Assembly: GCA_025360745.1 (NCBI GenBank)
Contig: JANYBP010000043.1
Span: forward strand, 10,455-74,454
Origin: a bacterium
Lineage (GTDB): Bacteria > Verrucomicrobiota > Kiritimatiellia > CAIKKV01 > CAIYGI01
Direction: 5' to 3'
Length of the DNA: 64,000 nucleotides
Under the pieces are notes generated by a model. It made no database searches and was not told the DNA's origin. It worked only from the letters and a program-made list of their open reading frames with translations. The translations under genes were made by a program, and so were the position numbers. This document shows positions 28,501 through 35,760 of the stretch, piece by piece (positions within the stretch are counted from its first letter, which is position 1; every line of letters begins with the position of its first letter).

Positions 28501-31500
28501 TCAGACGCTTTTCTCCCCGACGGCGAGGCGGGGAAGTTTCAGGCGCGGGGAATGGCGGTGGTATTCCTGGATGCTGCACACTTCCATGCGTCCGGCCTGG
28601 CGCATGCATTCGAGCCCGCCCAGGGCGTAGCGCCAGCCGTGGATCGTGGTCGTGATCGGAATGCCGCGGATCACCGCGTGCGATCGCATGCGCACCTCGT
28701 CCATGCGCGGGGTGGCGCCGCTGGACGGGGTGTTCACGATCCACTGAATCTGCTTCTCCTCGATCAAATCGATCACGTTCGGACGGCCGTCGGAAATGCG
28801 GAACACCGCCTGGGTCTTGATGCCGTTGTTGCGCAGCAGCGTGCTGGTGCCGGCGGTCGCAAAAATGCCGTACCCGAGTTTGGTCAGCCGTTGCGCGAGC
28901 GGAATTACCGCCTGCTTGTCTTCTTCGCGAATGCTCAGGAAAACATTGCCGGAGAGCGGCAGCGGGTTGCCGGCGGCCACCTGGCTTTTGAGAAAGGCCA
29001 TTTCGGCGGAACTGTCTATGCCCATGACCTCGCCGGTGGACTTCATCTCCGGACTCAGCACCACATCGGCGCCGGGGAAGCGGGCGAAGGGGAACACGGC
29101 CTCCTTGACCGAGTAGTGGCGCGGATGCGCCTCGTTGGTAAAGCCCAAATCCCTCAGTTTGTGGCCTGCCATCACGAGCGCCGCCAGTTTGGCCAGCGGC
29201 ACCCCGATCGCCTTGCTCACAAAGGGCACGGTCCGCGAGGCGCGGGGGTTCACCTCGAGCACATAAACCTCGCCGTCCTTGATGGCGTATTGCACATTCA
29301 TCAATCCGCAGACCTGGAGCTCTTGGGCCATCGCCAGCGTCATACGCCGGATCTCTTTTTTGACATCTTCGGTCAACGTCGGCGACGGAATCGAACAGGC
29401 GCTGTCGCCGGAATGAATGCCGGCCAGTTCGACGTGCTCCATAATGGCGCCGATCACCGAAGTCTCGCCGTCGGAAATACAGTCCACATCCACCTCGACG
29501 GCATTCTCCAGATAGCGGTCAACCAGCACTGGACGGTCATCGGAGACCAGCACCGCCTCCGCCATGTAGCGGCGCAGCATTTCGACATTGTACACAATCA
29601 CCATGGCGCGCCCGCCCAGCACGAACGATGGCCGCATCAGAACCGGATAGCCGATTTTCCCGGCAATCGCCTCAGCCTGGATGGCGTTCGTGGCGATGCC
29701 GTTGTCCGGCTGGCGCAGCCCCAGGCGGCGCAGCATGAGTTGGAAAAGGTTGCGGTCCTCGGCGACCTCGATGTTGGAGGGCGATGTGCCGATGATGTGA
29801 ACGCCGTTGGCCTCCAGACCTTTCGCCAGCTTGAGCGGCGTCTGCCCGCCGAACTGCACAATCACCCCTTCGCACTGTTCGCGGCGGTAGATGCTGAGCA
29901 CATCTTCCAGCGTCAGCGGCTCGAAGTACAGGCGGTCGCTGGTGTCGTAGTCGGTGCTGACCGTTTCAGGGTTGCTGTTGACCATGATGGTCTCGAACCC
30001 AGCATCGTGCAGCGCAAAGGCGGCATGCACGCAGCAATAGTCGAATTCGATCCCCTGCCCGATCCGGTTCGGTCCGGCGCCCAGAATCATGATTTTCCTG
30101 CCGGCGCTCTTCCTTACCTCGTCGAGGCTGCCGTAACTCGAATAATAGTACGGCGTCAGGGCGGCGAACTCGGCCGCACAGGTGTCAACCAGTCCGTACA
30201 CCGGCAGCAGTCCCGTCTTTTCGCGCGCCGCGCGCACCGCGCTTTCCTCTGCGTTCAGCAGCCACGCGATCTGGCGGTCGGAATAGCCGAATTGCTTGGC
30301 CTGCCGGAAAAGCGGCGCATCGCGCACCAGCCCTTCAAGCGAACCGGCGCCGCGGATTTCCTCCTCGTAGGCGGCCAACTCCTCGAATTGGCGCAGGAAC
30401 CAGGGGTCGATTTTGGTCAAGCCAAACAGTTTTTCCACCGTCCAGCCGCGCCGCAAGGCAGCGCGCACCTGAAACAAACGCTCTGAATTAGGCCGTTTAA
30501 GTTCAGCCTCCAATTGCTGGTCGGTCAGCGCTTCAGAGCCGGCATCCTTGCCATCGGCGCCGAATCCGAAACGTCCGGTTTCGAGCGAACGGCAGGCTTT
30601 TTGCAGCGAATGCTTGAAAGTCTTACCGATGCTCATGGCCTCGCCCACGGACTTCATCTGCGTGCCGAGCGTGGTGTCGATGCCGGGAAACTTCTCGAAG
30701 GTAAAGCGTGGCATTTTGACGACCACGTAATCGATCGTCGGTTCGAAGCAGGCCGGCGTTTCGCGCGTGATGTCGTTGCGCAACTCGTCCAGGGTGTATC
30801 CGATGGCGAGTTTGGCGGCTATTTTGGCGATCGGGAAGCCGGTGGCCTTGGAGGCCAGCGCGCTGGATCGCGAAACGCGCGGGTTCATCTCGACGATCAC
30901 CATGCGCCCGTTGGCGGGATCGATCGCCCACTGTACGTTCGATCCGCCGGTATCGACGCCGATTTCGCGCATCACCGCCAGCGAACTGTCGCGCATGCGC
31001 TGATATTCGCGGTCGGTGAGTGTCTGCGCCGGCGCCACCGTGATGCTGTCGCCGGTATGCACCCCCATGGGATCCACGTTTTCGATCGAACACACGATCA
31101 CGCAGTTGTCCTTGCGGTCGCGCATGACCTCGAGTTCGAATTCCTTCCAGCCCAGCACCGATTCCTCGATCAGAATCTCGGAAGTCGGGCTGTAAAAAAT
31201 GCCGCGCTGGCCGATCTCGTCGAAATCGGCCTCGTTGTAGGCGATCCCGCCGCCGGTGCCGCCGAGGGTGAAACCCGGACGGATGATCAACGGATAGCGC
31301 CCGATCGTATCGCGCACCAGGCGCGCCTCTTCGATGGTGTGCGCCACGCCGCTGACCGGCACTTCGAGGCCGATCTTGATCATGGCCTGTTTGAACAGTT
31401 GCCGGTCCTCGGCCTTACGGATCGCCTCGGCGCTGGCGCCGATCATTTCCACGCCGTAACGCTGGAGGATGCCCTTGTCCCAGAGTTCGATCGCCAGGTT

Positions 31501-31788
31501 GAGGGCGGTCTGACCGCCCAGCGTCGGCAGCAGCGCGTCGGGACGTTCGCGGCGAATGATCTCGCGCAGGATGTCGCAGGTCAGCGGTTCGATGTAGGTG
31601 CGGTCGGCGAACTCCGGATCGGTCATGATCGTGGCCGGATTGCTGTTGACCAGCACCACCTCATAGCCCTCTTCGCGCAGGGCCTTGCAGGCCTGCACGC
31701 CGGAGTAGTCGAACTCGCAGGCCTGCCCGATCACGATCGGGCCCGAGCCGATCAGCATGACTTTCTTTATATCTGTACGTTTTGGCAT
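28501..31788 (-). CDS. carB: Carbamoyl-phosphate synthase large subunit
   Basis: [30 protein letters not shown]... canonical CarB N-terminus. Duplicated ATP-grasp halves. About 1095 aa. Confidence 0.95.
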
Positions 31789-31797
31789 TTTAATAAA

Positions 31798-31826
31798 CGA
31801 TGAACGATGAATGATGAACGATGAAG
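31798..31826. repeat. Left arm of inverted repeat, (CGATGAA)x4, bracketing the four-helix-bundle gene
   Basis: cgatgaacgatgaatgatgaacgatgaag. Its reverse complement lies at 32215-32242. Confidence 0.75.
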
Positions 31827-31845
31827 AAACTAACGAAAGACGATT

Positions 31846-32220
31846 TCATTGCTGTTTCCTTTTTTTTGCGGTAATTACGGAAGCGGTGAAGATTGCTATG
31901 AGTTCTTCCGTTTCGTCCAACAGCCCTTGCATCTCATCTGACAGAACGGTTTTACTGCCGACCAGCAGTTCCAACCAATATACAGTCTCATCCAACTCCT
32001 GCAGACCACCCTCCATCTTGCTTATGAACTCAGCCGTGGAACGCGCTCGGGACGCTTCGCGATGGTGCGCACCAACCGACGTTCCGCTTCTCAGCACTTG
32101 CTTTCCAAGAACCTGGGCCACGGACGTTTTCGCTAAAGAACAATACATTCGGATAATCCGCAGTGAATATTCCTTCAGCCTCTCTTTCAAATCCCAAGGT
32201 TTCTGTTTTTCCGCATTCAT
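31846..32220 (-). CDS. Four-helix-bundle protein (23S rRNA intervening-sequence protein family)
   Basis: EYSLRIIRMYCSLAK...QVLRSGTSVGAHHREASRARSTAEFISKMEGGLQELDETVYWLELL is typical of the family. Confidence 0.8.
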   Translation of the reverse strand: MNAEKQKPWDLKERLKEYSLRIIRMYCSLAKTSVAQVLGKQVLRSGTSVGAHHREASRARSTAEFISKMEGGLQELDETVYWLELLVGSKTVLSDEMQGLLDETEELIAIFTASVITAKKRKQQ

Positions 32221-32242
32221 CGTTCATCATTCATCGCTCATC
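32215..32242. repeat. Right arm of inverted repeat, (TTCATCG)n, overlapping the start codon of the four-helix-bundle gene
   Basis: cattcatcgttcatcattcatcgctcatc. About 21 contiguous complementary bases with the left arm. Confidence 0.75.
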
Positions 32243-32329
32243 ACGTTGGCGGAATAATGCGCGATGCGGGGAAAAAACGCAAACGAATTGCCTGAGCGTA
32301 CGGATATAATGCCGCGATGAAATGGCCGT

Positions 32330-32542
32330 TACACCGCGACTTCAGCGTGTTGGATTCTGGTTCCGAAGTGCGCATCGACTTCAGGCCGTGCGTCAAGATA
32401 GTCGCGGATGGCGCCACGGATGTTCGCCAAGGCTTCTTCGCGTGTTGCGCCTTGTGAGCAACACCCAGGCAAGGCGTCTCACCAAACGGCAAAACCTTCG
32501 TCGGATTCAACCAGTGTGACGTTGTAGCGTTCGGCATTCATG
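32330..32542 (-). pseudogene. hicB: HicB-family (UPF0150) antitoxin-like gene interrupted by an in-frame TGA
   Basis: My minus-strand translation: MNAERYNVTLVESDEGFAVW-(TGA)-DALPGCCSQGATREEALANIRGAIRDYLDARPEVDAHFGTRIQHAEVAV*. The -PGC-SQG-T-EEAL-N- pattern is HicB-like. Not in the ORF track because of the stop. No hicA partner is visible. Confidence 0.4.
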
Positions 32543-32645
32543 GCGATAAGAAAGCCAGAATGTAGTCGAAAAGTCAAGTAGCGGCGGAATGCCGGGTATC
32601 CGCACCGTACACAGCAAGTTCAAATTCCTGTTGCCTGCCACTCAT

Positions 32646-35760
<3,115 letters not shown>

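Follow-up and report, generated by a model that had tools for sequence, protein, structure and literature searches.

The short minus-strand reading frame between pyrG and an ORF read as carB resembles a hicB antitoxin gene, carries an in-frame TGA and has no hicA beside it, which raises the question of whether it still encodes anything or is what remains of a toxin-antitoxin module. Across the window, by which we mean the whole 64-kb stretch of DNA that was analysed, the evidence makes it highly probable that the locus is a relic of a type II hicBA module, namely an orphan hicB-like gene that was recently pseudogenised by the TGA.

An interrupted hicB-like reading frame downstream of pyrG

On the minus strand, positions 32329-32541 translate as MNAERYNVTLVESDEGFAVW, a stop, DALPGCCSQGATREEALANIRGAIRDYLDARPEVDAHFGTRIQHAEVAV and a second stop, with the ATG at 32541-32539, the TGA at 32481-32479 and the TAA at 32331-32329. 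A reading of this DNA made from the sequence alone (the sequence-only reading) had already described the hicB-like ORF, which does exist; its coordinates, however, were all one base too high, and the minus-strand translation of 32330-32542 is nonsense, confirming the offset. The features around the ORF are as follows.

32646-34265, minus strand: pyrG (CTP synthase), the upstream neighbour, ending in TGA; Pfam CTP_synth_N and GATase in its homologues
32542-32645, minus strand: gap of 104 nt from the pyrG stop to the hicB-like ATG, with no room for a hicA gene (ORF map)
32329-32541, minus strand: hicB-like gene, probable pseudogene, 70 codons plus TAA, broken at codon 21 (PF15919, E=4e-5)
32479-32481, minus strand: in-frame TGA at the Cys21 position of the WCDxLPGCC motif (translation, alignment, Logan assemblies)
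32221-32328, minus strand: spacer of 108 nt from the hicB-like stop to the four-helix-bundle ATG, the site of hicA in relatives, with no statistically supported remnant
31793-32242, minus strand: cassette with a 124-aa four-helix-bundle gene (31846-32220) between inverted repeats (TIGR02436, PF05635, repeat analysis)
28501-31788, minus strand: 1095-aa ORF read as carB, carbamoyl-phosphate synthase large subunit (ORF and translation)

The label carB comes from reading the translation and follows the name given in the sequence-only reading. The longest ORF across the locus is an out-of-frame one of 98 aa (minus strand, 32241-32537) that overlaps the hicB relic; a look-up in the protein collection did not return it and it is probably spurious, though automatic gene callers could pick it. 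No consensus promoter or terminator was found in the 104-nt gap, and neither the window nor the spacer gave a match to known RNA families in Rfam.

Membership in a family of small HicB-like proteins

The read-through protein matched the Pfam family HicB_lk_antitox (PF15919) with E=4.2e-5 and 24.1 bits, a significant match although it falls short of the gathering score of 27, and gave weak matches to DUF7387 and UPF0150 (E=0.016 for UPF0150). With an X written at the stop, the same protein retrieved 166 homologues at E<=1e-3 from the protein database, nearly all of them carrying a precomputed PF15919 match. The best, P0001, is an intact 70-aa soil-metagenome protein with 93% identity over all 70 residues (E=3e-36), so the HicB similarity goes well beyond chance. 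A profile of 30 family members reached the solved HicB antitoxins 6g1c and 6g1n at E of about 1e-3 (best 1.2e-3).

The fold was assessed on intact P0001 and not on the truncated product. Its AlphaFold model (101 aligned sequences, mean pLDDT 91.5) has strands at residues 8-13, 16-21 and 28-31 and a helix at 34-59, with Cys21 ending strand 2. In a Foldseek search with this model the top 12 PDB matches were HicB N-terminal domains or TTHA0281 (2dsy), at probability 0.97-1.0 and TM 0.5-0.62; 1wv8 was also listed. P0001 is thereby predicted to have the HicB N-terminal fold (beta-beta-beta-alpha, partial RNase H-like or dsRBD-like). Taken together, the Pfam, profile, homologue and fold matches make it a sound assignment that the product of the locus belongs to the HicB-like family, in a small single-domain type without a DNA-binding domain. 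The HicB-like identity proposed earlier is borne out by these matches as well as by relatives that adjoin hicA.

Relatives at 44-63% identity are also encoded on seven IMG/VR viral contigs (L051-L057), so the wider family travels on phages or prophages too.

A stop codon in place of a conserved cysteine

Position 21, where the TGA stands, is Cys in all 29 aligned homologues; among the 120 best cluster representatives, 118 have Cys there, one Ser and one Gly. Of the two residues that the stop had been thought to replace, Cys or Pro, the first is therefore right and the second wrong (Pro in 0 of 120). The position is part of the subfamily motif WCDxLPGCCSQG, and the aligned solved HicB has Val there. 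Codon 21 reads TGC in the metagenome loci L001 and L002, TGT in L003 and L048, and either TGC or TGT in all relatives fetched. The nearest DNA relative is about 96% identical, has TGC at codon 21 and shows no indels between the two genes.

Cys21 belongs to a nearly invariant triad (residues 21, 27 and 28; WCDxLPGCC) that ends strand 2 and begins strand 3. The triad is missing from the aligned solved HicB chains and could be a disulfide or metal site in this subfamily.

The window's exact four-helix-bundle protein is encoded on Logan contigs from SRR23617164, SRR23617162 and SRR20627838, which are separate assemblies. Aligned to 31790-32700 (about 900 nt), all three agree with the window at 100% identity, TGA included, and further samples are reported to hold the same contigs. 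As far as these three independent assemblies show, no sense codon stands in place of the TGA. Gene calls on the Logan contigs place nothing between pyrG and the four-helix-bundle gene. Genome-wide recoding of TGA was rejected: TGA ends 30 of the 54 long non-overlapping ORFs in the window (62% GC), pyrG among them, and is the commonest stop there.

Apart from this single inactivating lesion the gene is perfectly preserved, which speaks against a pseudogene. Pairwise dN/dS within the clade is 0.06-0.09, and between the window and L001 it is 0.40, a value from small counts (3 synonymous changes, 4 non-synonymous ones and the nonsense change). When the changes were polarised by eye against an alignment with L003 and L048, the window branch received non-synonymous changes at R5, N7 and D55, the stop and 1 synonymous change. 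Such a pattern fits relaxed constraint on the window branch, the counts being too small for a firm test. In operational terms the gene is a pseudogene: it has a nonsense codon, reproduced in independent assemblies, where a 96%-identical relative has TGC, and its dN/dS, from small counts, is higher on the recent branch than in the clade. The earlier description of a decayed hicB-like gene without hicA agrees with our results.

The missing hicA toxin

In seven relatives (L005, L007, L011, L013, L014, L048 and L049) hicA starts 1-5 nt after hicB. The HicB-like proteins of intact relatives have 67-70 aa and the adjoining HicA proteins about 70 aa, with genes of 204-213 nt. In L048 and L049 the HicB is 70 aa long, 81% identical to that of the window, and adjoined by hicA. 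With seven HicA proteins as tblastn queries we found no hicA in the whole 64-kb window (best E=0.29), nor in the closest loci, L001-L004. That hicA is absent, and that neither side offers room for it, had both been noted before and hold: the gaps measure 104 and 108 nt against hicA genes of 204-213 nt.

In L003, one of the relatives without hicA, 14 nt of the hicA start (CATGCCTCGCATAC) are kept right after the hicB stop, and the sequence diverges thereafter; this remnant suggests a deletion scar, and hence that hicA was lost by deletion. Given the adjoining hicA of the relatives and the scar in L003, loss of hicA is the derived state and the window copy an orphan. The window and L001 cease to resemble each other at one and the same nucleotide, an argument that their common ancestor already lacked hicA.

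A candidate hicA remnant in the 108-nt spacer was also considered. In a MAFFT alignment the spacer looked collinear with hicA of L048 and shared with it the exact 12-mer CGTGATGAGCGA. Under strict scoring only this 12-mer was left, which 8 of 1000 shuffles reach and which falls within the heptamer repeat arm of the cassette; with lenient scoring and dinucleotide shuffles as the control, z was 1.4, and -0.85 without the repeat arm. The remnant is thus unsupported. At the dS of about 0.9 between the window and L048, neutral DNA would be unrecognisable anyway.

Degraded hicA next to intact hicB is often seen in the family. In L006 and L010 hicA is frameshifted, in L008 and L009 it has frameshifted C-terminal extensions beside an intact hicB, and the protein P0080 is a HicB fused to the C-terminal two-thirds of HicA. 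In the Lacunisphaera MAG GCA_029945445.1 (L013 1596-3426, and L014) a hicBA pair lies directly behind a pair of bAvd and reverse-transcriptase genes, the hicB start overlapping the reverse-transcriptase stop by 4 nt, a layout like that of a diversity-generating retroelement.

A hicB-only segment in a variable spacer

Similarity to L001 and L002 covers the gene and its immediate surroundings:

32326-32578, minus strand: segment of 253 nt, about 96% identical to the soil-metagenome contigs L001 and L002 (DNA alignments)

The segment comprises 37 nt upstream, starting with TTGACT, the gene itself and 3 nt (CGG) after the stop. Beyond it the window, L001 and L002 are unrelated; in L001 the segment comes after an HTH-domain gene. 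Positions 1-50 of L002 (ENA assembly ERZ1756482, NODE_315534) contain GTGACTGGAGTTCAGACGTGTGCTCTTCCGATCT, which we take to be Illumina TruSeq adapter, that is, contamination rather than genomic flank, so that effectively two genomic contexts are available for the segment. The window and L001 copies differ by a dS of only 0.064, at which homologous flanks would still be recognisable; to judge from the alignments, the hicB-only segment must therefore have moved or recombined recently.

The surroundings of the relic were examined as well. A Pfam scan of the ten flanking ORFs showed mostly core metabolic genes, among them glutamate synthase large subunit and a class-II amidotransferase. The nearest named relatives of PyrG come from Kiritimatiellia MAGs (78% identity); those from Verrucomicrobiota and Lentisphaerota MAGs reach 72-74%. 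One same-strand array runs from pyrG through the hicB relic and the four-helix-bundle gene to the ORF read as carB. The four-helix-bundle gene (TIGR02436 / 23S_rRNA_IVP; PF05635) is intact, with 71.9 bits against a TIGR02436 cut-off of 24. The inverted repeat that brackets it is 27 nt long, 96% complementary and made of GATGAAC/T heptamers, and one arm contains the ATG of the gene; in the window the heptamer pattern occurs only at the cassette. All three Logan contigs (L045, L046 and L047) end on their 3' side inside the distal repeat arm, at window positions 31793-31810, which suggests that the repeat has many copies across the genome or community and interrupts assembly. Only 4 nt (31789-31792) separate the distal arm from the ATG of the ORF read as carB, which leaves that ORF without an upstream region of its own.

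In GC content the spacer (0.43-0.57) is lower than its flanks, the window as a whole having 0.62. A strain with a 98%-identical PyrG (P0122) has after pyrG a 192-aa NTP_transf_2/Polbeta nucleotidyltransferase, a 168-aa zinc-ribbon protein and a 46-aa ORF, where the window has the hicB relic and the four-helix-bundle cassette; the comparison is with one relative and uses gene calls on a 5741-nt contig. On account of these different genes and the lower GC, the pyrG-carB spacer is a variable accessory spot, or hotspot. It had been called a graveyard of accessory DNA, of which the accessory part fits the GC and the 98%-PyrG strain; the word graveyard goes too far, the four-helix-bundle gene being intact.

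Alternative readings of the interrupted gene

Three other explanations were weighed against a recently pseudogenised orphan. According to the first, which we consider improbable, the locus keeps an antitoxin-like activity, either through readthrough of the UGA by a near-cognate tRNA or through re-initiation at TTG 32472 with a product of 47 aa, and could act against addiction by incoming hicBA modules. Orphan antitoxins have indeed been discussed as possible anti-addiction modules (PMC7192599). Everything but the stop is intact, the upstream region is common to L001, a GGTGA read directly from the sequence lies 6 nt before TTG 32472, and the hicA-less copies in L001 and L003 are under long-term purifying selection (dN/dS 0.06-0.09). 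However, the 47-aa fragment would be without beta-1 and beta-2 of what is, by the model, a small domain of three strands and a helix, and is unlikely to fold; readthrough would happen at a low rate only and would put some residue other than Cys at the conserved position. The window, moreover, offers no hicA as a target, and the signs of relaxed constraint on its branch speak against a retained function.

The second explanation takes the TGA as a selenocysteine codon at Cys21 of an intact, recently evolved HicB-like protein. It is the only one that would make the locus notable: the protein would be a newborn selenoprotein in a family without known selenocysteine-containing members, using a pre-existing hairpin, and a redox or metal-binding role for the subfamily Cys triad would be implied. 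The TGA aligns with a 98%-conserved Cys in a three-Cys motif, a classic selenoprotein signature, and the TGA allele is identical across several samples. [quoted passage not shown]

32448-32476, minus strand: hairpin CGCCUUGCCUGGGUGUUGCUCACAAGGCG downstream of the TGA, fitting the SECIS consensus no better than chance

This hairpin (read 32476-32448) has -13.2 kcal/mol, the apical loop GUU and a spacing of 16 nt, and a synonymous change specific to the window, CCC to CCT, gives the upper stem one more base pair. Yet the TGC homologue L001 carries the same qualifying hairpin, 93 of 300 dinucleotide shuffles (31%) also satisfy the SECIS model, 47 of them folding at least as well, and the broader fold has z=-0.3.

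Recurrence of the TGA form was scanned for at the DNA level with the pattern W-TGA-D-x-L/F-P-G-C-C, which matches the window site. There were 14 matches in 185,579 genomes (species) and 13 in 241 million JGI metagenome records, and on translation none in either set was HicB-like; the UGA thus recurs in none of the 27, while the corresponding Cys pattern matches 98 of the 120 family representatives and 11 fetched loci. Further against selenocysteine, HicB binds a toxin and is no oxidoreductase, two family members have Ser or Gly at position 21, the window branch shows a non-synonymous excess, and the window is without any tRNA gene and hence without tRNA-Sec. A Pfam scan of the ten neighbouring ORFs showed no domains of the selenocysteine machinery. 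Our literature searches found no paper linking HicB with selenoproteins and nothing useful on Kiritimatiellia and selenocysteine. On balance we regard the selenocysteine reading as very improbable.

The last explanation, that the TGA is a sequencing or assembly error in an intact stand-alone HicB-like gene, scarcely deserves credence: one base separates TGA from TGC, a change that errors could produce, and the window appears to derive from a metagenome-assembled genome, but the three independent assemblies with the TGA, and a collection of about 15 billion proteins without any intact version of the exact sequence (Cys or Trp at 21), make an error very unlikely.

Proposed course of decay

We therefore return to the recently pseudogenised orphan of a hicBA module, for which we infer the order of events, the loss of function and the role of the intact protein in neutralising HicA. 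If solved HicAB complexes are a guide, the intact HicB-like protein would neutralise the mRNA-cleaving HicA by direct binding. In the lineage of the window hicA would have been lost, leaving a 253-nt hicB-only segment with a short upstream region of its own, a copy of which would have reached the variable spacer downstream of pyrG. A single change of TGC to TGA at the conserved Cys21 would then have cut the product to 20 residues, which in the model correspond to beta-1 and beta-2 only, with the third strand and the long helix gone. The outcome would be a recent pseudogene of which no function is expected. The relic may still be passively transcribed, since it shares its strand with pyrG, the four-helix-bundle gene and the ORF read as carB.

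Seen in this way the locus is ordinary and of little consequence, a clean, datable case of the usual decay of toxin-antitoxin modules, with the toxin going first and the orphan antitoxin afterwards. It also points to the pyrG-carB spacer of a PVC-group lineage as a site where small accessory genes accumulate. The practical use of the finding is in annotation: the locus is best labelled as a HicB-family pseudogene and not as a gene, and the out-of-frame ORF 32241-32537 should not be called.

Comparison with known systems

With the antitoxins of type II HicAB systems (PF15919; 6g1c and 6g26 of Burkholderia pseudomallei, 6hpb of E. coli, 4p78 with HicB3 of Yersinia) the subfamily has in common the N-terminal three-strand-plus-helix domain and the motif LPG...G.T.EEA...AI, and Foldseek aligned P0001 to solved HicB antitoxins with probability 1.0 and TM 0.55-0.62. 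It differs from them in being only 70 aa long, in missing the C-terminal DNA-binding domain, in the gene order of its relatives, hicB before hicA, and in a Cys triad of its own (C21, C27 and C28), the corresponding residues of the solved B. pseudomallei HicB being Val and others. The window copy departs further from HicB antitoxins, as it does not reach the Pfam gathering score, a TGA interrupts it and it is without hicA. UPF0150-type proteins (PF21748; TTHA0281, 2dsy, and TTHA1013, 1wv8) are likewise single-domain, with 70-80 aa and the same fold, while their sequence similarity to the window copy is marginal.

Bacterial selenoproteins that have Cys homologues resemble the window copy in the UGA at a conserved Cys and in a hairpin that formally fits the SECIS consensus; in the window, however, the UGA is not recurrent in the family and the hairpin is non-specific. 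A further parallel is with orphan antitoxins, which are abundant in bacterial populations, and decaying toxin-antitoxin loci are well documented (PMC7192599). As in those cases, an antitoxin homologue is found without an adjacent toxin, in a context unlike that of a valid toxin-antitoxin pair; the orphan of the window differs in being itself inactivated by a nonsense codon and in sitting between two core metabolic genes.
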